Assembly (NCBI GenBank): GCA_964520545.1
Contig: CAZFOD010000003.1
Span: 20,728 to 84,727 of the forward strand
Length of the DNA: 64,000 bases
Reading direction: 5' to 3'
Source of the DNA: an uncultured Candidatus Saccharibacteria bacterium
GTDB lineage: Bacteria; Patescibacteriota; Minisyncoccia; Phycocordibacterales; CAIZLB01
This document shows positions 27,035 through 37,247 of this stretch, one piece after another. The position numbers and the translations under genes are program-made. Every line of letters begins with the position of its first letter. Position 1 is the first letter of the stretch. The notes under the pieces were generated by a model. That model saw nothing but the letters and a program-made list of their open reading frames with translations. It did no database searches and was not told where the DNA came from.

Positions 27035-27066
27035 CAAAGTGTTAGATTGTGTGTTACTATCGCATG

Positions 27067-28164
27067 ATGAAACTATCTTTAGGTATCGTTGGTCTTCCAA
27101 ACGTGGGTAAATCCACGCTTTTTAATGCACTTACAAAGAAATCTGTACCTGCTGAAAACTATCCATTCTGCACCATCGATCCTTCGGTTGGTGTTGTTGC
27201 TGTTCCTGATGAAAGACTCCATAAACTTGCTGATTTTTCAAAGACACTAAAGACAATCCCTGCCGCCATTGAGTTCGTGGATATTGCAGGTCTTGTAAAA
27301 GGAGCATCAGAAGGTGAAGGACTTGGAAACCAATTCCTGTCACATATTCGTGAAGTAGATGCAATCACTGAAGTTGTTCGTATTTTCGAGGATTCAAATG
27401 TCATTCACGTAGATGGAAAGATTAACCCTGTAAATGATATTGGGGTTATTAATCTCGAATTGGTATTAGCAGATGCGCAGACTGTGACAAAGCGACTTGG
27501 CTCTGTTGAAAAAGACGCAAAGCGAGGAGACAAGCTTGCTGTAAAGGAAAAAGCTGCGCTTGAAAAGATCCGTGTAATTCTTGATGAGGGAAAGCTTGCT
27601 CAGCAGGCAGATCTTACAGATGACGACAAGGAGGCAATTAAAAACCTTCAGCTCCTTACCATGAAGCCAATCATGTATGTGCTCAACAAAAAAGCTGGAG
27701 GAACGAATTTGGATGAATTAAATGATGAGCGATATCAGGAATTGATGAAGTTTTTTGTAGATAACAACTTCAAGTGGACAATCGTAGATGCAGGAGTAGA
27801 GCACGAGCTTAAAGACCTAGAAGGAGATGAGAAAGAAATGTTCCGAAAGGAACTGGGTGCTAAGGATGATGGGATTGATAGTCTCATTCGAGCAGGCTTT
27901 GATCTTCTAAACCTTCAGATGTATTTCACCACTGGAGTACAAGAAACACGTGCATGGACGATTCATAAGGGTTGGAATGCTCCAATGGCAGGAACAGCTA
28001 TTCATAATGACTTTAAAGACAAGTTCATCAGAGCTGAAGTTATAAACTGGAAGACTCTAATTGAAGCAGGTTCATACGCAGCTGCTCGTGAAAAAGGATT
28101 AGTAAAAACGGAAGGGAAGGAATATGTCGTACAGGATGGGGATGTAATGGAGTTTAAGGTTTAA
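27067..28164 (+). CDS. ychF: Ribosome-binding ATPase YchF (Obg-like GTPase family)
   Basis: LSLGIVGLPNVGKSTLFNALT P-loop, DIAGLVKGASEGEGLGN G3, C-terminal TGS-like domain. Confidence 0.9.
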   Translation: MKLSLGIVGLPNVGKSTLFNALTKKSVPAENYPFCTIDPSVGVVAVPDERLHKLADFSKTLKTIPAAIEFVDIAGLVKGASEGEGLGNQFLSHIREVDAITEVVRIFEDSNVIHVDGKINPVNDIGVINLELVLADAQTVTKRLGSVEKDAKRGDKLAVKEKAALEKIRVILDEGKLAQQADLTDDDKEAIKNLQLLTMKPIMYVLNKKAGGTNLDELNDERYQELMKFFVDNNFKWTIVDAGVEHELKDLEGDEKEMFRKELGAKDDGIDSLIRAGFDLLNLQMYFTTGVQETRAWTIHKGWNAPMAGTAIHNDFKDKFIRAEVINWKTLIEAGSYAAAREKGLVKTEGKEYVVQDGDVMEFKV

Positions 28165-28929: not shown

Positions 28930-29922
28930 ATGGACCCAATGACAAAACCAAAGACTACTGCCAAGGATTTCTTCCTTCACATTGGAGTGATCGCAGCCTT
29001 GTACGTATTTGCGACAAGCTTTCTCAGTTTCTTGTTTGATATTATTAACTTCGCATTTCCAGATCGACAGGCATATTACGCTGACCCATATGCTGGAAGT
29101 TTGCGGATAGCGCTTTCAACACTCATTGTTTCGTTTCCAATTCTCCTTCTTCTCTTGAAAACAATTTACAAGGATCTTTTTGCTAACCAAGCAAAGAGAG
29201 ATCTTACTCTTCGAAAGTGGCTCATATATCTCACTCTCTTCCTAACATCAGTAACAATTGCAATTGATTTGATATATGTAATCAATACCTTCCTTGGCGG
29301 AGAGATTACTACTCGTTTCGTTCTTAAGGCACTCTCAGTGCTTGTTGTAACTGGAGGAATCTTCTGGAGTACCCTTAATGACTTACGTGGCGTGTTCTTC
29401 GAGAAGCCAAAGGTGCGTATCGTTGCAATAACTACTACATCTCTTGTTGTTTTGGCAGCTGTTGTAGGAGGCTTTCTAATCATCGGCTCTCCAAGCTCTC
29501 TTCGAGATCTTAGAGACGATAACCAGCGACTCTCTGACCTTCAGAGTATTCAATATCAGGTTTTGAATAGCTATCAGACTAAGGGAAAGCTTCCTCTTTC
29601 ACTGTCTGAACTTAATGACTCTTTGAGCGGATATATGGTTCCAACTGATCCTGCAACAGATGCGTCATATGAGTACACAAAGGTAGCAACAACCTCAATT
29701 ACTTTTGAGCTTTGCGCTACATTTGAGAAGTCTACACAGGATCTTGAAGGTAAGGGGGAATACCCAGGAAAGGGCGGTGTTGCATATCCAAGCGATGTGT
29801 ATATTGATCCAATCTTTGGTGGTGCGAATTGGAAACATGATGCGGGACACGCATGCTTTGTTCGAACTATCGATCCTTTGAAGTACCCAATATATCCTAA
29901 GACACAGAATCTCGGAGCGTAG
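28930..29922 (+). CDS. Membrane protein, DUF5671-like (CPR-type)
   Basis: Four to five N-terminal TM helices followed by extracytoplasmic domain. Confidence 0.45.
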   Translation: MDPMTKPKTTAKDFFLHIGVIAALYVFATSFLSFLFDIINFAFPDRQAYYADPYAGSLRIALSTLIVSFPILLLLLKTIYKDLFANQAKRDLTLRKWLIYLTLFLTSVTIAIDLIYVINTFLGGEITTRFVLKALSVLVVTGGIFWSTLNDLRGVFFEKPKVRIVAITTTSLVVLAAVVGGFLIIGSPSSLRDLRDDNQRLSDLQSIQYQVLNSYQTKGKLPLSLSELNDSLSGYMVPTDPATDASYEYTKVATTSITFELCATFEKSTQDLEGKGEYPGKGGVAYPSDVYIDPIFGGANWKHDAGHACFVRTIDPLKYPIYPKTQNLGA

Positions 29923-29934
29923 TACGACAGCCTC

Positions 29935-32790
29935 ATGAAATCTAAAAAAGAAACACAATACGATCATATAAAGATCGAGAAGAAATGGCAGAAAGTTTGG
30001 GAAACAAAGAAGCCATACAAGGCTTCTGATACGAGTAAGGCAAAGAAATTCTATCCTCTTGTAGAATTCCCATTCCCTTCTGGAGCAGGACTCCATACCG
30101 GACACATTCGCAGTTATGCTGCGATGGATATTGTTGCACGTAAACGTCGTATGATGGGAGAAAATGTGTTGTATCCAATCGGATGGGATGCCTTTGGTCT
30201 TCCTACTGAAAACTTTGCGATAAAGACAGGTAAACAGCCTAAGCTTGTAACAAAGGAAAATACGGACAACTTCCGCCGGCAATTAAAGATGCTTGGTCTT
30301 TCATTTGATTGGTCTCGAGAAATCAATACAACAGATCCTGAGTACTATAAATGGACCCAGTGGATATTCATACAGATGTTTAGGAAAGGACTGGCGTACA
30401 AGGCTCGTACGGCAGTAAATTGGTGTCCAAAAGACAAGACAGTGCTTGCAAACGAAGAAGTCATAAATGGGGCGTGTGAACGTTGTGGTACAAACGTTGA
30501 GAAGAGAGAAAAGGAACAGTGGATGCTTGCCATTACAAAGTATGCAGATCGTCTCGACAAAGATCTCGACACTGTCGACTATCTAGAACGTATAAAGATA
30601 CAGCAGCGTAATTGGATTGGTAGAAGTACTGGGTCAGAATTGGATTTCTCAATTGTTGGATCAAAGGAGAGTGTGAAGGTATTCACGACACGAGCGGATA
30701 CGCTCTTTGGTGTGACCTATGTTGTCCTCGCACCAGAACATGCTCTCGTTGAACAGCTTTTAGATAAGGTTTCTAACAAAGCTGAAGTAGTGAAATATAT
30801 TACTGCAGCTAAAGCTCGAGCAGATATTGATAGGACTGCGGAAGGAAAGGAAAAAACAGGAGTTGAACTTAAAGGCGTAAAGGCAGTTAACCCTGCAAAT
30901 GGTGAGGAGGTTCCTGTTTGGATTGCTGACTATGTCCTCGCAACATATGGAACGGGTGCTGTCATGGCGGTTCCTGCACATGATCAAAGAGATCTTGAGT
31001 TTGCTCAGAAATATAATCTTCCAGTAAAAAATGTTGTCATTCCGTCTGTCGTTGACCATGTAAATCCTCCACGTGCTGATAAGGGAACCAAGGTAAGAAA
31101 GAATGTACACGCCATAGTTTTTGATCCTAAGACGAAGAAATACCTCATCATCCGTAACAAGAAGTTCGGATGGGACACTGTTGTCATCGGAGGAATTGAA
31201 GAAGGAGAAGAACCGGTTGATTCAGCACTCCGAGAGTTAGCCGAAGAGACTGGCTACACTGATGTGGAATATAAAAGAACACTTGGTGGACCTGTTCAGG
31301 CTGCATATTTTGCAAAACATAAAGACGAAAACCGTGTAGCTTTTGCTACAGGTGTATATTTTGAATTGAAGAGTGATAAGCGATTAGAGATTGATCAAGG
31401 CGGTGAAAACGAGGGAAATGAAATCCTTTGGGTAGACGGAGCTGAATTTGTCCCTGGAAAGATGGTTAACTCTGAACTTCCATATTGGCTTGAAAGACTT
31501 ACGGCACAAAAAGATATTGCGTATGAAGGGAAGGGAATCCTTGCCGAATCTGGATCATTTGATGGAATGGATTCTGATTCAGCAAAGGTGAAGATTACAA
31601 AGCTTGTGCATGGAAAAGAGGTAACAAAATACAAGTTGAGAGACTGGGTTTTTTCTCGACAACGATATTGGGGAGAACCAATCCCTGTTGTTAATTGTGC
31701 AGCATGCGGATTAGTGGCGCTTCCTGACAAGGAACTTCCTCTTAAATTACCTGAGATAAAGAAATATGAACCTACAGATACCGGTGAATCACCACTTGCA
31801 ACGATAGAGAAGTGGGTAAAGACTAAATGCCCTAATTGTAAGGGTCCAGCAAAGCGCGAAACTGACACTATGCCTCAGTGGGCTGGATCTAGTTGGTACT
31901 ATTTGCGATATGCAGATCCAAAGAACAAGAAAGCACTTATAGATCCAAAGAAACTTAATATCTGGCAGCCTGTTGATTGGTACAACGGGGGTATGGAACA
32001 CACTACTCTTCATTTGTTGTACTCTCGATTCTGGCATAAATTCCTTTTTGACATTGGAGTGGTAAAAACAATTGAACCGTATGCTAAGCGTACCTCTCAC
32101 GGCCTCATTTTGGCCGAAGGCGGAGCGAAAATGTCGAAGTCGAAGGGAAACGTGGTTAACCCCGACGACCTCGTTAAACTCTACGGTGCGGACACATTGC
32201 GTCTTTATGAAATGTTCATGGGTCCATTTGATCAGGCAATACCATGGAGTAGTGACAATATGATCGGACCTCGAAGATTCATTGAAAGAACATGGAATCT
32301 TGCAAAGAAGGTTAAGAAAGCTGATGCCGACAAGGAGGTTGATGCACTGGTTCATAAGACTATTAAAAAAGTGAGTGGGGATATAGAGGGTATGGGCTTC
32401 AATACCGCAGTATCATCACTTATGATTCTCCTCAATGCGTTTGAGAAACAGACTGTAGTATCAAAGGACCATTACAAGATATTCCTTCAGCTCCTTGCTC
32501 CTTTCGTGCCTCATGTTGCTGAAGAATTATGGGCAGAGCAGGGAAACAAGAAGAGTATTCATCAGTCTCCGTGGCCAGAATTTGACCCAAAGAAGCTTAT
32601 TTCCGATTCCTTTAATATTGTTGTCCAAGTTAACGGAAAGGTACGAACTACCTTTGTTTCTGACAGTAATGACGAGGAGACTGTTAAGAAATATGCCCTT
32701 GAACACCCTGTGGTCATCAAATGGCTGGAGGGTAAGACCCCAATTAAGGTCATTTATATCCCAGACAAGCTTGTGAATATCGTCATTTAG
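29935..32790 (+). CDS. leuS: Leucine--tRNA ligase with an inserted Nudix hydrolase domain
   Basis: Class I HTGH (HIGH) and KMSKS motifs; CP1 editing signatures TTRADTLFGVTYVVLAPEH and GTGAVMAVPAHDQRD; extra ~160 aa (res ~368-525) with perfect Nudix box GGIEEGEEPVDSALRELAEETGY. Confidence 0.9.
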   Translation: MKSKKETQYDHIKIEKKWQKVWETKKPYKASDTSKAKKFYPLVEFPFPSGAGLHTGHIRSYAAMDIVARKRRMMGENVLYPIGWDAFGLPTENFAIKTGKQPKLVTKENTDNFRRQLKMLGLSFDWSREINTTDPEYYKWTQWIFIQMFRKGLAYKARTAVNWCPKDKTVLANEEVINGACERCGTNVEKREKEQWMLAITKYADRLDKDLDTVDYLERIKIQQRNWIGRSTGSELDFSIVGSKESVKVFTTRADTLFGVTYVVLAPEHALVEQLLDKVSNKAEVVKYITAAKARADIDRTAEGKEKTGVELKGVKAVNPANGEEVPVWIADYVLATYGTGAVMAVPAHDQRDLEFAQKYNLPVKNVVIPSVVDHVNPPRADKGTKVRKNVHAIVFDPKTKKYLIIRNKKFGWDTVVIGGIEEGEEPVDSALRELAEETGYTDVEYKRTLGGPVQAAYFAKHKDENRVAFATGVYFELKSDKRLEIDQGGENEGNEILWVDGAEFVPGKMVNSELPYWLERLTAQKDIAYEGKGILAESGSFDGMDSDSAKVKITKLVHGKEVTKYKLRDWVFSRQRYWGEPIPVVNCAACGLVALPDKELPLKLPEIKKYEPTDTGESPLATIEKWVKTKCPNCKGPAKRETDTMPQWAGSSWYYLRYADPKNKKALIDPKKLNIWQPVDWYNGGMEHTTLHLLYSRFWHKFLFDIGVVKTIEPYAKRTSHGLILAEGGAKMSKSKGNVVNPDDLVKLYGADTLRLYEMFMGPFDQAIPWSSDNMIGPRRFIERTWNLAKKVKKADADKEVDALVHKTIKKVSGDIEGMGFNTAVSSLMILLNAFEKQTVVSKDHYKIFLQLLAPFVPHVAEELWAEQGNKKSIHQSPWPEFDPKKLISDSFNIVVQVNGKVRTTFVSDSNDEETVKKYALEHPVVIKWLEGKTPIKVIYIPDKLVNIVI

Positions 32791-32853: not shown

Positions 32854-33897
32854 ATGGCAGCAATCGCCCTCAACTTTAAACCAAAGAATGTAACAAAGAA
32901 ATTACTCGCTGCCTTGCCTGAAAGGGCTCGTTTGGTGGTATCTAAGCGTTACGGTCTTGATAAGACAAATGAAAGAATGACCCTCGAGGCTATCGGGGAG
33001 CTTTATGGCATTACCAGAGAGCGTGTTCGACAGATTGAAAATGCTGCTCTTGCTAATATCCGAAAATCAGGCTCTTTTAAGCAGGAAAAGGCTGCTTTTG
33101 ATGAGCTTCAGTCTATCGTAGTAGCCCTTGGCTCAATTGTCTCAGAAGATGATCTTCTTTCTCATGTTGCAAAGGATGAGTCAACTCAAAATCATGTTCA
33201 CTTCATGCTTGTTGTTAGCGATACCTTCAAGAAGGAAAAGGAAGATGACGAATTCAAGCACCGATGGCATGTAGATACAGAGCTCTCAAAAAAGATTCAT
33301 GAGGCTCTTCGAAAGCTCTACAAAAACCTCAATGATGACGATTTAGTTCCTGAATCTGAAATGATCGAGAAATTCCTCGAACATTTGAAGGATGTTAATG
33401 ATAAATACAAGAACGAGGAGGTTGCAAAGCGATGGTTGCGAATCTCAAAGCATATCGATAAGAACCCTCTTGGCGAATGGGGTAAGGCATCTTCACCTAA
33501 TGTCCGAACAAAGGGTATTCGAGACTATGCATTCCTCGCTATGCGAAAGCACGGCTCACCTATACACTTCCGAGACATTGCAAAGCTCATACAGCAGCTT
33601 TTCAACAAGAAGGCACATGTTGCTACAACTCATAACGAATTGATTAAAGACAAGCGATTCGTATTGGTTGGACGAGGTCTCTATGCACTTACTGAATGGG
33701 GGTATCTTTCAGGTGTCGTCAAAGACGTCATCAAGAAGGTCCTTACAAAAAACGGTCCACTTACAAAAGATCAAATCATCGAAAAGGTACTCAAGGAACG
33801 ATACGTAAAAGAAAATACTATCTTAGTAAACCTCCAGAACAGCAAGCAGTTCAAGAAGGACAAAGAAGGAAAGTATCACTTGGTAGAAGAGAAATAA
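32854..33897 (+). CDS. DNA-binding protein: sigma-70 region-4-like HTH plus C-terminal HARE-HTH-like domain
   Basis: TLEAIGELYGITRERVRQIENAALANIRK (region 4 signature); C-terminal ...DKRFVLVGRGLYALTEWGY (HARE-HTH signature). Confidence 0.5.
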   Translation: MAAIALNFKPKNVTKKLLAALPERARLVVSKRYGLDKTNERMTLEAIGELYGITRERVRQIENAALANIRKSGSFKQEKAAFDELQSIVVALGSIVSEDDLLSHVAKDESTQNHVHFMLVVSDTFKKEKEDDEFKHRWHVDTELSKKIHEALRKLYKNLNDDDLVPESEMIEKFLEHLKDVNDKYKNEEVAKRWLRISKHIDKNPLGEWGKASSPNVRTKGIRDYAFLAMRKHGSPIHFRDIAKLIQQLFNKKAHVATTHNELIKDKRFVLVGRGLYALTEWGYLSGVVKDVIKKVLTKNGPLTKDQIIEKVLKERYVKENTILVNLQNSKQFKKDKEGKYHLVEEK

Positions 33898-33964: not shown

Positions 33965-35212
33965 ATGTCAGGTAATGAAGCTCTTCAGCAAATCTTTGGA
34001 CCTCTCTTTGGAATAATCATCCAGATTGTAGTCTTTGTCTCATTCATCATTGTCCCTATATTTCTCATGATTTGGTTTTGGAAGAACTGGGTGAAATATG
34101 TTCGTGCTGTATTCTTCGCTTCTCAAAAGTATGTAGTGTTGGAGCTTAAGATTCCAAAAGGAATTGCCAAGAGTCCACTTGCTATGGAGCTCTTTATGAC
34201 CTCACTTTTCCAAACTGGAGGTGAGGGTACTCCGTTTGATAAGTTCTGGTTGGGGAAGACTCGTCCGTGGTTTTCGCTTGAGATTGCATCAATTGAAGGA
34301 CAGGTACGCTTTTTCATCTGGACCCGAGAGGCATTCAAGGGACTCGTTGAAAGCCAACTCTATGGTCAGTTTCCTGATATTGAAATGAATACTGTTGAGG
34401 ACTATAGCTCGAAAATAAACTTTAACTGGGCTGATCACCAAATGTGGGCGTGTGATTTTAAGAAAGGACAAGCATCACATCTCCCGATAAAAACATATAT
34501 AAATTATGGTCTTGATAAGGATCCGAAGGAAGAGGTAAAGATCGATCCAATAACATCAATCATCGAATTTCTTGGCTCCGTTGGCCGAGGTGAACAAATC
34601 TGGATGCAAATTGTCATCAGAGCTCATAAAAAGGAATTAACTAAACCAGGAACATGGTTTGAAAAAGTAGACTGGACCGATGCTGCAAAAAAGGATGTTG
34701 ATAAAATTATGAAGCGTGATAAGAAGGCTAAAGATGGAGAAGTGAACTTTGCTGATTTTTCAATGACAAAGGGTGAGCGTGAAAAAGTAGAAGCAATTGA
34801 AAAGAATGTTTCAAAGCTTGCCTTTGATTGCGGTATTAGAGCTATATACGTCGCTAGGAAAGATAGTTTCAAGCCCGCAATGATTCCAGGCCTTACTGGA
34901 AGCCTCCGTCAGTACAATGCTCCTAACCTAAACGGCTTCGCTCCAGCTAACGGTACTGCCTACGACTATCCATGGCAGGACTTTACTGGAGTAAGGACAA
35001 TGAAAAAGAAAGAAAAGATGATGTTCCTTTATAGGAATCGATCTTTCTTCTACCCAGAATTCTTTCCAGATGGATATGAATATGAAGCTTTTGTCATGAC
35101 GACAGAGGAACTCGCCACCATATATCACTTCCCAGGTGATGTTTCTCGAACCCCTAACCTTAGTCGAATTTCTGCAAAGAGAGCAGAAGCTCCATCAAAT
35201 CTTCCGATTTAA
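33965..35212 (+). CDS. Hypothetical membrane protein
   Basis: N-terminal TM helix, large soluble domain; no recognised family. Confidence 0.45.
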   Translation: MSGNEALQQIFGPLFGIIIQIVVFVSFIIVPIFLMIWFWKNWVKYVRAVFFASQKYVVLELKIPKGIAKSPLAMELFMTSLFQTGGEGTPFDKFWLGKTRPWFSLEIASIEGQVRFFIWTREAFKGLVESQLYGQFPDIEMNTVEDYSSKINFNWADHQMWACDFKKGQASHLPIKTYINYGLDKDPKEEVKIDPITSIIEFLGSVGRGEQIWMQIVIRAHKKELTKPGTWFEKVDWTDAAKKDVDKIMKRDKKAKDGEVNFADFSMTKGEREKVEAIEKNVSKLAFDCGIRAIYVARKDSFKPAMIPGLTGSLRQYNAPNLNGFAPANGTAYDYPWQDFTGVRTMKKKEKMMFLYRNRSFFYPEFFPDGYEYEAFVMTTEELATIYHFPGDVSRTPNLSRISAKRAEAPSNLPI

Positions 35213-35215
35213 TCC

Positions 35216-36181
35216 ATGTCATCACTCGGCAAATCATTGCGATTCGGGATATTGGGTGGACTCTTGGCTTTTTCAGTCATCATTGCCTTCTATCAATTCG
35301 TCCTGTCAGCTCCTTCTAATTTTGTTTCCGGTACATCCATTGTCATAGATCCAGGACAAAGTATTTCGAGTATCACTAATGAGTTGCACATGAACAATAT
35401 TGTTCGATCTCCTCTATTATTCAGAAGCCTTGTCATTTTCTACGGAGGCGAGCGGCGTACATCTGCTGGTATGTATCTCTTCAATGGGCCTCAAGATGTG
35501 TTCCATATAGCTCACCGTATTTCAAATGGTGACTATGGTTATGTACCCGTTAAATTAACTTTGCCTGAAGGGTTAACGTCAGCAGAAACAGCAAAGCTTG
35601 TTCATGACAAGTTTCCGCAAATTAATGAGAAAGATGCTGAGATTGCTTTTAGGCCGTATGAAGGAAAGCTTTTCCCAGAAACATATTTCTTTTCACCACA
35701 GGCACCTCTTCAAATGATTTTAGATAGGTTACTGGCGCAGTTTGATAAGAGCATTGGGAGTAGAACAAAAGCCATTGAGGATTCAGGTCGTTCACTTGAC
35801 GAAATATTGATACTCGCCTCCATTCTTGAGGAGGAAGTGCAGAATGACATTGATCGTCGCATAGTTGCGGGTCTCATTTTACGTCGATTAGAAATTGACA
35901 TGCCGCTTCAGGTTGATAGCACATTGGGGTATGTTACGGGCAAAGCATCTCTTCAGCTTACTCTAAAAGACCTACAGCTTGATTCGCCATACAATACATA
36001 TAAGTACAAAGGGTTGCCTCCTACTCCAATTTCTAATCCGGGCCTTTCATCGATAGATGCGGCACTTAATCCGACTCCTAGTAAGTACCTCTATTTTCTT
36101 TCTGATAAAGATGGTATAAATCATTTCGCCGTAACCTACGGTGAACATGTTAAAAATCGTAAAAAATACCTCGGGAAATAA
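35216..36181 (+). CDS. mltG: Endolytic murein transglycosylase MltG (second paralog)
   Basis: DSPYNTYKYKGLPPTPISNPG and C-terminal HFAVTYGEHVKN motifs. Confidence 0.75.
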   Translation: MSSLGKSLRFGILGGLLAFSVIIAFYQFVLSAPSNFVSGTSIVIDPGQSISSITNELHMNNIVRSPLLFRSLVIFYGGERRTSAGMYLFNGPQDVFHIAHRISNGDYGYVPVKLTLPEGLTSAETAKLVHDKFPQINEKDAEIAFRPYEGKLFPETYFFSPQAPLQMILDRLLAQFDKSIGSRTKAIEDSGRSLDEILILASILEEEVQNDIDRRIVAGLILRRLEIDMPLQVDSTLGYVTGKASLQLTLKDLQLDSPYNTYKYKGLPPTPISNPGLSSIDAALNPTPSKYLYFLSDKDGINHFAVTYGEHVKNRKKYLGK

Positions 36182-37247
36182 GAAGGTCTGGGTTGGTATG
36201 TCTGGTGGTGTAGATTCTTCTGTATCAGCCTTGCTTTTGAAGCAGGCGGGTTTCGACGTGACAGGTGTGTTCATTAAAGTGTGGCAGCCTGAGAATGGAG
36301 AGTGTACATGGAAAGATGAGCGACGGGATGCAATGAGGGTTGCGGCTCATCTGGATATTCCATTTCTTACATTTGATTTTGGAGATGAATACAAAAAAGA
36401 AGTTGTTGATTACATGATCCGAGAATACAAGCAGGGTAGAACTCCAAACCCTGATGTTATGTGCAACCGATTCATTAAGTTCGGCTCTTTCCTTAAGGCT
36501 GCAAGGGAAGCTGGTGTTGACTATGTTGCAACGGGTCATTACGCACAAAATATTTTAAATATTAAGACTGGAAATTTTGAACTTAAAGAAGGAGCTGACA
36601 AGAATAAAGATCAAACATATTTTCTTTGGACATTAAATCAGTCCGACCTGCAACACATATTGTTCCCTGTTGGACACTTGCAGAAGAGAGAGGTACGAAA
36701 GATTGCAGAAAAGAATAGCTTACCAATATTCGACAAGAAGGATAGTCAGGGTATCTGCTTCATTGGACATGTCGACATGAAAGAATTCCTGAAGGAACAT
36801 ATTGATACACAAAAAGGGAATGTCATTGATATGAAAGGTGAAATAATCGGTGAACACGACGGTGCCCTCCTGTATACCATCGGAGAACGCCATGGTTTTA
36901 CTTTGTACAATTCGTCGCCTGACGAACACCCAAAGTATGTAATCACTAAGGATGTATCGAAGAATACAATCACGGTGGCGGAATATACCGAGGAAGTAGT
37001 CTCTCATATGGCTAAAACAGCCCTAGCGAGCTCTGTAAGTGCTACAAGTGGTGAAATGGACTCACTCATTGGTACTTTTGACGTAAGGCTTAGATATAGG
37101 CAAGAGAAGCAGAGATGCAATATCAAGAAGGGTAAGGAAGGTACCCTAGAGATCACATTTGATCCTCCTCAGAAAACGGTAACTTCTGGCCAGTCTATTG
37201 TCATTTATGATGGCGAAGTCTGTAGGGGCGGTGGTATACTGGTTTAA
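36141..37247 (+). CDS. mnmA: tRNA-specific 2-thiouridylase MnmA
   Basis: PP-loop KVWVGMSGGVDSSVSA; conserved Cys pattern; 368 aa. Confidence 0.85.
   Translation: MNMLKIVKNTSGNKKVWVGMSGGVDSSVSALLLKQAGFDVTGVFIKVWQPENGECTWKDERRDAMRVAAHLDIPFLTFDFGDEYKKEVVDYMIREYKQGRTPNPDVMCNRFIKFGSFLKAAREAGVDYVATGHYAQNILNIKTGNFELKEGADKNKDQTYFLWTLNQSDLQHILFPVGHLQKREVRKIAEKNSLPIFDKKDSQGICFIGHVDMKEFLKEHIDTQKGNVIDMKGEIIGEHDGALLYTIGERHGFTLYNSSPDEHPKYVITKDVSKNTITVAEYTEEVVSHMAKTALASSVSATSGEMDSLIGTFDVRLRYRQEKQRCNIKKGKEGTLEITFDPPQKTVTSGQSIVIYDGEVCRGGGILV

Follow-up and report, generated by a model that had tools for sequence, protein, structure and literature searches.

The 64-kb window analysed here (64,000 nucleotides of contig CAZFOD010000003.1; "the window" denotes this whole stretch of DNA) harbors leuS, an ATG-start open reading frame (ORF) encoding a bacterial-type leucyl-tRNA synthetase (LeuRS, or LeuS after its gene) of 951 aa. 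A complete Nudix hydrolase domain is nested in this synthetase, within its CP1 editing domain. The features of the locus are listed below; residue conservation, here and throughout, refers to an alignment of 90 single-copy homologues.

29935-32790, + strand: leuS, bacterial-type LeuRS with nested Nudix domain, 951 aa
30094-30105, + strand: HIGH-type signature H54-T-G-H57 of the class I catalytic site, from the translation; H54, G56, and H57 invariant
30607-31035, + strand: N-terminal part of the CP1 editing domain, residues 225-367 (PF13603 profile positions 1-145 of 185 cover residues 225-373)
30685-30702, + strand: T-rich motif T251-T256 of CP1; T251, T252, R253, D255, and T256 invariant
30976-30993, + strand: AHDQRD of CP1, residues 348-353; D350 and D353 invariant
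31036-31509, + strand: Nudix module, residues 368-525 (translation VIPSVV...LTAQ), a 20-residue N-terminal extension with the invariant R388 followed by the Nudix fold
31189-31257, + strand: Nudix box G419-Y441, GGIEEGEEPVDSALRELAEETGY, an exact fit to GX5EX7REUXEEXGU
31306-31335, + strand: family-specific, X-loop-like region Y458-F-A-K-H-K-D-E-N-R467 after the box, with an aromatic residue at +17 and K463 and R467 invariant
31510-31602, + strand: C-terminal part of CP1, residues 526-556, past the insert (from PF13603 after in silico deletion and from the alignment to 1h3n)
32128-32142, + strand: KMSKS loop, residues 732-736; K732, S734, K735, and S736 invariant
32329-32679, + strand: anticodon-binding domain, residues 799-915 (PF08264, 78.5 bits)

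In an NCBIfam scan of the 951-aa protein, TIGR00396 (leuS_bact) scores 990.2 bits against a cut-off of 548.4, and the Thermus thermophilus LeuRS (1h3n) matches with E = 2e-227. Pfam also reports the class I catalytic domains, and the editing domain model PF13603 scores 216 bits. The host enzyme retains the HIGH, KMSKS, T-rich, and AHDxRD motifs and, judged by these, is expected to be a working LeuRS. It is the housekeeping leucyl-tRNA synthetase of a bacterium of the Parcubacteria group (candidate phyla radiation, CPR). The leucine-specific domain is absent: T. thermophilus residues 594-634 are unmatched in the alignment to 1h3n, where the window reads ILAEGGAKMSKS, and a short linker, "EGGA", leads into KMSKS (window 32110-32142, residues about 726-736). 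The consensus of the aligned homologues has the same short linker. LeuRSs that lack this domain, which contributes to tRNA binding, are a known natural variation, found for example in Bacillus and Mycoplasma (PMC3643597).

A first-pass annotation of the window had proposed a complete Nudix domain with a perfect Nudix box at 31036-31509, and the proposal stands. Translation of this interval gives residues 368-525. Pfam NUDIX (PF00293) matches residues 388-511 with 45.7 bits (cut-off 21.1; E = 8e-12 for the whole protein) and the excised segment alone with 50.3 bits. The box at residues 419-441 fits its consensus exactly, the catalytic residues are intact, and the LeuRS motifs are kept. Across all six frames of the window, GX5EX7REUXEEXGU is matched only once, by GGIEEGEEPVDSALRELAEETGY. 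This sole match, its exactness, and the PF00293 and TIGR00396 scores together establish that the Nudix domain is real and not a chance match. By model scores and motifs, the protein belongs both to bacterial LeuRS and to the Nudix superfamily.

The positions that define the module are strongly conserved. R388, G419, G420, E434, G440, K463, R467, and W499 are invariant (90/90), and E437, E438, and E491 (89/90), N466 (88/90), and E425 and R433 (87/90) are nearly so. The catalytic glutamates and arginine of the Nudix box are kept in at least 96% of the 90 sequences, and 64 of the 67 single-copy LeuS from GTDB carry a strict box. The module retains all metal-binding and catalytic residues of the box and is apparently an active pyrophosphatase. 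In an AlphaFold2 model of the module (predicted local distance difference test, pLDDT, 91; predicted template modeling score, pTM, 0.85), it is predicted to fold as a canonical Nudix domain, an alpha/beta/alpha sandwich; the structure prediction for the full-length LeuRS has a pLDDT of 88 and a pTM of 0.77. A Foldseek comparison with the PDB gives 538 matches at E <= 0.001, and every one of the 50 listed belongs to the Nudix family. With a net charge of -4 and an isoelectric point (pI) of 5.5 (family median pI 5.8), the module is acidic; the LeuRS body has a net charge of +22 and a pI of 9.2.

The insertion point differs from that of the first-pass annotation, which had placed the insert after CP1 and had taken the segment behind it for the resumed catalytic core. 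In the alignment to 1h3n, residues 9-368 of the window protein correspond to T. thermophilus residues 4-362 and residues 526-741 to 373-593, such that the 158-aa module takes the place of a 10-residue CP1 loop (T. thermophilus 363-372). The insert starts ~15 residues past the conserved AHDQRD, and ~30 CP1 residues come after it. When residues 368-525 are deleted in silico, the PF13603 match becomes contiguous and covers profile positions 1-182 of 185. The restored match and the 1h3n alignment thus place the Nudix module inside CP1, and the "KGILAESGSFDG" segment 3' of the insert is still editing domain, since PF13603 runs through it after the deletion. A surface loop of CP1 is the best explanation for the insertion site; among the LeuRS chains matched in the PDB, none carries any domain at the position of loop 363-372. 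The length of 951 aa was given correctly in the first pass, while the excess of ~100 aa is reduced to 73-91 aa relative to the enzymes from T. thermophilus (878 aa) and E. coli (860 aa). The net excess is this small despite a gain of 158 aa because the leucine-specific domain is missing.

The insert evolves much like the domain that surrounds it. In a comparison with the gene for a 96%-identical protein, taken from an independent assembly (dS about 0.47), the ratio of nonsynonymous to synonymous substitution rates (dN/dS) is 0.059 for the Nudix module, 0.055 for CP1, and 0.031 when the rest of LeuS is taken together with CP1. These ratios indicate that purifying selection on the Nudix module is as strong as on the editing domain. 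Averaged over alignment columns, identity reaches 0.76 in the catalytic core, 0.48 across the anticodon-binding and C-terminal part, and 0.43 in the Nudix region. The GC content of the insert is 42.8%, compared with 42.3% in the rest of leuS. A recent horizontal acquisition was considered and ruled out; the GC content equals that of the host gene, and the insert occurs throughout the clade.

NCBI, Logan, and ENA assemblies all contain the identical 951-aa protein. PF00293 is present in 120/120 of the closest LeuRS clusters (50-96% identity). A scan of GTDB, with one genome per species, finds relatives of the insert in at least 563 species genomes. At the 80 loci inspected, which are the best 80 of these and come from independent assemblies, the Nudix domain lies inside the LeuS reading frame in every case (80/80). 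According to the record labels, from which the taxonomy is taken, these are mostly metagenome-assembled genomes (MAGs) assigned to Patescibacteria or Parcubacteria. The more specific labels among the relatives (Giovannoni-, Taylor-, Vogel-, Uhr-, Moran-, and Wildermuthbacteria, and Paceibacterota) belong to the Parcubacteria group of Patescibacteria. The LeuRS-Nudix arrangement is therefore inherited across hundreds of species. An initial impression of rarity, in which a word-index search with the insert alone returned five fragments, was overturned by the genome scan and by the full-length and HMM searches.

Many MAGs that contain a LeuS-Nudix gene of this kind (L004, L012, L031, L062, L074, and others) are labelled "uncultured Candidatus Saccharibacteria", "Gammaproteobacteria", "Nanoarchaeia", or "Fimivivens". 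For a Parcubacteria-like LeuS-Nudix, such labels probably reflect default or mistaken taxonomy or mis-binned contigs.

An exhaustive profile search with the insert recovers 3348 cluster representatives at E <= 1e-3, 88 of them at E <= 1e-30. LeuRS flanks are present in 103 of the 152 sequences examined (147 new representatives listed and 5 from the first search); several of the remaining 49 are LeuRS fragments, and others are free-standing Nudix proteins of about 160 aa. One such relative was confirmed on its contig as a separate gene. Derivation of the Nudix module from a free-standing Nudix gene is the best explanation for its origin.

The architecture is not rare; public databases already contain it, and automatic names reflect it in part. 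One member bears the JGI name [quoted passage not shown], the esterase being YcpF. Among the relatives whose database names were compared (P0023, P0064, P0104, P0121, and P0274), NCBI calls several "class I tRNA ligase family protein" and not leucine--tRNA ligase, and the insert is the suspected cause of this generic naming.

Many relatives are 1100-1490 aa long and carry two to three copies of the same Nudix family. The copies occupy two sites: site 1 lies between "...DLD" and "WPESIKxxQRNWIGRS", just ahead of the N-terminal hinge of CP1, and site 2 is the CP1 insertion point of the window. Extra copies sit at site 1, where the second tandem copy usually has a degenerate box, and certain lineages have Nudix at site 1 only. 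Multi-copy examples include relatives P0016, P0017, P0026, P0126, and P0127 and loci L006 and L013. The largest variant seen is that of L006 (Candidatus Taylorbacteria MAG PLXZ01000004.1), a stop-free LeuS segment of 1735 aa with three Nudix copies, in which the T-rich motif comes only at residue 804 and KMSKS at 1496.

By identity clustering, the Nudix subtype of the window groups with 22 site-1 and 28 site-2 copies, with 60-71% identity across sites. Its motif, IIRNKKFGWDTVVIGG...MVNSELPYWLERL, is found at site 2 in the clade of the window and at site 1 in other lineages, and site 2 of L013 is held by a different Nudix subtype. The copies set side by side were those at window positions 31036-31509 and in L015, L019, L020, L024, and L013. 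Clustering of this kind, which is not a rooted phylogeny, suggests relocation of the subtype between sites, or duplication followed by differential loss. Since the same subtype occurs at two positions, a strict geometric coupling to the synthetase is disfavored.

The LeuRS of relatives has also received other hydrolases. An alpha/beta-hydrolase (Ser_hydrolase; PF06821/PF12697/PF00561) occupies site 1, between the catalytic core and CP1, in P0016, P0026, P0065, and P0157, and one cluster (P0073) has a HAD domain downstream of CP1 at residues 654-808. In P0026 (1477 aa), the order is Nudix, degenerate Nudix, Ser_hydrolase, CP1, and a further Nudix. The insertion of unrelated hydrolases likewise weighs against a tightly coupled mechanism.

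A second synthetase carries the same Nudix subfamily. In an archaeal-type prolyl-tRNA synthetase (ProRS), it lies between the anticodon-binding and C-terminal domains and matches the insert profile with E = 4.8e-27. This ProRS-Nudix form comprises only five clusters (P0245 and P0275-P0278) of 641-674 aa; among proteins without Nudix, their nearest relatives carry the labels Nanoarchaeota or Woesearchaeota. The box is perfect in one cluster, differs by a single R-to-K change in another, and is degenerate in the other three. Pfam detects no separate editing domain in the archaeal-type ProRS with Nudix. The Nudix subfamily has been fused to ProRS independently of LeuRS.

The genes around leuS in the window, together with the remaining features, are as follows.

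341-416, + strand: tRNA-Ala(TGC), the sole RNA gene detected in the window
27049-28164, + strand: YchF GTPase
28930-29922, + strand: DUF5671 membrane protein, 12 nt before leuS
32854-33897, + strand: protein with sigma70_r4 and HARE-HTH
33965-35212, + strand: DUF8128 protein
35216-36181, + strand: YceG/MltG
36141-37247, + strand: MnmA
29695-30282, 30760-31110, 31395-31868, and 31789-32355, - strand: antisense ORFs of 116-195 aa within leuS

The gene order from YchF to YceG recurs in L082, and the immediate leuS neighbors recur in L083. These neighbors are housekeeping genes and are uninformative about the function of the Nudix module. A promoter and terminator scan around leuS was uninformative, its signals being equal or close to background. 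In the window, no further Rfam family attains its threshold. The antisense ORFs overlap a conserved leuS frame and are most likely not genes.

The substrate class of the module was approached through its nearest characterised relatives. Against PDB sequences, the insert profile matches best the lupin diadenosine tetraphosphate (Ap4A) hydrolase (2.5e-8), mainly through the N-terminal strands and the box, followed by 2azw, the mRNA-decapping effector AvrM14, and the Aquifex Ap4A hydrolase (5.7e-6). By fold, the neighbors after 2azw are RppH, the Ap6A hydrolase Ndx1, the lupin Ap4A hydrolase, DDP1, AvrM14, and the ApnA-ase Rv2985. ApnA hydrolases have a tyrosine about 16-18 residues past the Nudix box, in the X-loop, and ADP-ribose pyrophosphatases have a conserved proline about 15-16 residues past it (Dunn et al. 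1999, as summarised in PMC5389931). In the window protein, the +17 residue is Y458, a position that is aromatic across the homologues (Y in 49/90, F in 39/90). The +15/+16 positions are A456/A457, and the nearest proline is P453 at +12 (proline in 28/90 homologues). The motif SQPWPFPxS of the NADH pyrophosphatase NudC is absent from residues 442-525. Upstream of the box, where CoA pyrophosphatases have the UPF0035/NuCoA motif LLTxR[SA]x3Rx3Gx3FPGG, the sequence is YLIIRNKKFGWDTVVIGG and the motif is not matched. The ADP-ribose, NADH, and CoA pyrophosphatase subfamilies were set aside as candidates, their signature motifs being absent.

Aminoacyl-tRNA synthetases (aaRSs) make dinucleoside polyphosphates (ApnN) from adenylates, and the Nudix enzymes NUDT2, RppH/NudH, and MutT1 degrade ApnN (PMC7705103). 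The reading we place first, and hold tentatively, is that the module is a hydrolase tethered to LeuRS, with ApnN or polyphosphate-bridged nucleotides and RNA 5' ends as its substrates. It would be an active Mg2+-dependent pyrophosphohydrolase and would give the synthetase a third, autonomous active site. Its likeliest substrates would be Ap4A and other ApnN made by synthetases from adenylate intermediates; alternatively, it may act on 5'-triphosphate or Np4-capped RNA ends, as do RppH-type enzymes. The invariant basic residues R388, K463, and R467 would suit a polyphosphate chain, and the aromatic residue at +17 and the rank of ApnA hydrolases and RppH as best characterised neighbors count in favor of this reading. 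Coupling to LeuRS would come from tethering, that is, from co-localisation and co-expression with the source of the substrate. Precise channelling is not implied, because the same Nudix subtype works from two insertion points. That two unrelated synthetases captured this Nudix type is consistent with a connection to synthetase chemistry, and the Ap4A or sanitising activity on LeuRS suggested in the first-pass annotation is plausible on this evidence.

Several observations weigh against this assignment. Identity to every characterised Nudix enzyme is only 15-24%, and the RppH and NudB equivalog models score 24-28 bits against cut-offs of 103-118, such that the module falls below the cut-off for membership in RppH by the NCBIfam PRK00714 models. 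The tyrosine at +17 (position 458) is present in only about half of the family (Y in 49/90, F in 39/90). The closest fold neighbor, 2azw, is of no help for the substrate because it was deposited without a stated activity. Boxes are degenerate in some extra LeuRS copies and some ProRS copies. LeuRS may be a permissive scaffold, given that alpha/beta-hydrolase and HAD domains are inserted in relatives. E. coli LeuRS, in the work of Goerlich et al. from 1982, reportedly lies outside the strong Ap4A producers.

The main rival, less probable but to be taken seriously, is that the module is an active housekeeping Nudix enzyme with a substrate unconnected with aminoacylation, for example an oxidised or non-canonical nucleotide, a nucleotide sugar, or ADP-ribose. 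In the small genomes of CPR bacteria, LeuRS would then be no more than a scaffold that is constitutively expressed and tolerates the insertion. The presence of unrelated hydrolases in the LeuRS of relatives is what such a scaffold would give, and use of two insertion sites by one subtype suggests that exact geometry is unimportant. The automatic JGI label "ADP-ribose pyrophosphatase YjhB" and a gene neighborhood without functional hints are also compatible with this rival. However, hitch-hiking does not readily explain why the same subfamily entered a second, unrelated synthetase independently, nor its repeated duplication within LeuRS, up to three copies. The missing ADP-ribose, NADH, and CoA pyrophosphatase motifs and the rank of ApnA hydrolases as top profile matches also argue against this rival.

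A more ambitious form of the tethered-hydrolase reading, speculative and in our judgement unlikely, is that the Nudix subfamily is a dedicated synthetase-associated hydrolase, in LeuRS and in some DPANN ProRS, that destroys ApnN or even non-cognate aminoacyl-adenylates at source. If this were true, Parcubacteria LeuRS, with its alpha/beta-hydrolase and HAD inserts, would be a multi-hydrolase quality-control platform and an undescribed mode of aaRS housekeeping.

A non-catalytic module is distinctly less likely. It would have a structural or regulatory role or would bind ligands or RNA (in the manner of CFIm25/NUDT21 or NrtR), for nucleotide sensing or for binding tRNA-Leu without the leucine-specific domain. 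Some Nudix proteins without catalytic activity are known to bind Ap4A or RNA (PMC7705103), the LeuRS of the window lacks a domain that contributes to tRNA binding (PMC3643597), and the second tandem site-1 copies and several ProRS copies have degenerate boxes. In contrast, the conservation of the catalytic residues and of the strict box in single-copy LeuS speaks for catalysis, an acidic module is unfavorable for binding the RNA backbone, and the Bacillus and Mycoplasma LeuRSs that have no leucine-specific domain do without Nudix (PMC3643597).

Lower still in probability is an integrated proofreading function, in which the Nudix module would work together with CP1, either hydrolyzing non-cognate aminoacyl-adenylates (pre-transfer editing) or acting at the tRNA-Leu acceptor end. 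Its nesting in an otherwise intact editing domain, its presence in an archaeal-type ProRS without a separate editing domain by Pfam, and the esterase-type alpha/beta-hydrolase inserts beside CP1, which hint at more hydrolytic chemistry, would fit such a function. Yet the insertion site is interchangeable and free-standing homologues exist. An aminoacyl-adenylate is, moreover, an acyl-phosphate and not a diphosphate, and we know of no Nudix enzyme that hydrolyzes one.

An artefact (an assembly chimera, a frameshifted neighbor, an intein, or a mobile element), for which only the five fragmentary proteins of the first word-index search could speak, is refuted by the continuous reading frame, the identical protein in three sets of assemblies, the recurrence of the architecture in all the clusters and independently assembled loci inspected, the lack of a compositional break, and the Pfam result for LeuS at E <= 0.01, where nothing other than tRNA-synthetase families and NUDIX is reported and hence no intein or transposase domain.

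Accessory domains of aaRSs are known chiefly from eukaryotic enzymes, to which they lend signalling functions; bacterial LeuRS is regarded as architecturally stable. What is new here is that an essential synthetase has an enzyme domain inserted in its editing domain and that this insertion is conserved throughout a lineage. The first-pass annotation was aware of no described LeuS-Nudix fusion; full-text literature searches likewise found no paper describing LeuRS-Nudix or any other aaRS-Nudix fusion, the co-occurrences that were checked proving unrelated, and we know of none. In a very large uncultivated bacterial radiation, an essential enzyme of translation has a second hydrolase in its proofreading domain, kept by selection. 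Relatives have up to three hydrolase modules more, and the ProRS of archaea with similarly reduced genomes took the same Nudix subfamily. If the module degrades synthetase-made dinucleoside polyphosphates, an alarmone would for the first time be seen to be made and destroyed by a single polypeptide, and Ap4A biology would become directly accessible in organisms whose metabolism is minimal. If its substrate is instead unrelated to aminoacylation, the architecture would show genome-reduced symbionts packing housekeeping enzymes into essential proteins.

The closest known systems each share part of this arrangement. With LeuRS of the Bacillus/Mycoplasma type, and with T. thermophilus 1h3n and E. 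coli 4aq7 as templates, the window enzyme has the catalytic core, ZN1, CP1, anticodon-binding, and C-terminal domains in common. The Bacillus/Mycoplasma type likewise has a short linker before KMSKS (PMC3643597), and the LeuRS of the window differs from it by the 158-aa enzyme domain. The insert shares its fold, its box, and an aromatic residue at about +17 with the ApnA hydrolases and RppH (lupin Ap4A hydrolase 1f3y, Aquifex 3i7u, T. thermophilus Ndx1, E. coli RppH/NudH, and mycobacterial MutT1/Rv2985). These are free-standing, asymmetrically cleaving enzymes, whereas the Nudix domain of the window is nested in another enzyme and is 15-24% identical to them. The closest fold neighbor, 2azw, a "MutT/nudix family protein" of Enterococcus faecalis with 19% identity, is also free-standing.

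Among fusions, NadM-Nudix joins a HIGH-motif NMN adenylyltransferase to an active ADP-ribose pyrophosphatase Nudix that degrades a related nucleotide (PMC7824862). It is an end-to-end fusion with an ADP-ribose-type Nudix and a non-synthetase host, whereas the window has an insertion in LeuRS; the corresponding model, NCBIfam NF003786, matches weakly (16 bits). NCBIfam NF040702, [quoted passage not shown], describes another class Ia aaRS with an extra catalytic domain, in that case GNAT and not Nudix. In the mammalian LysRS/Ap4A/NUDT2 axis, a synthetase makes Ap4A and a Nudix enzyme removes it, on separate proteins (PMC7705103). In the window, both activities would reside on one polypeptide, LeuRS.

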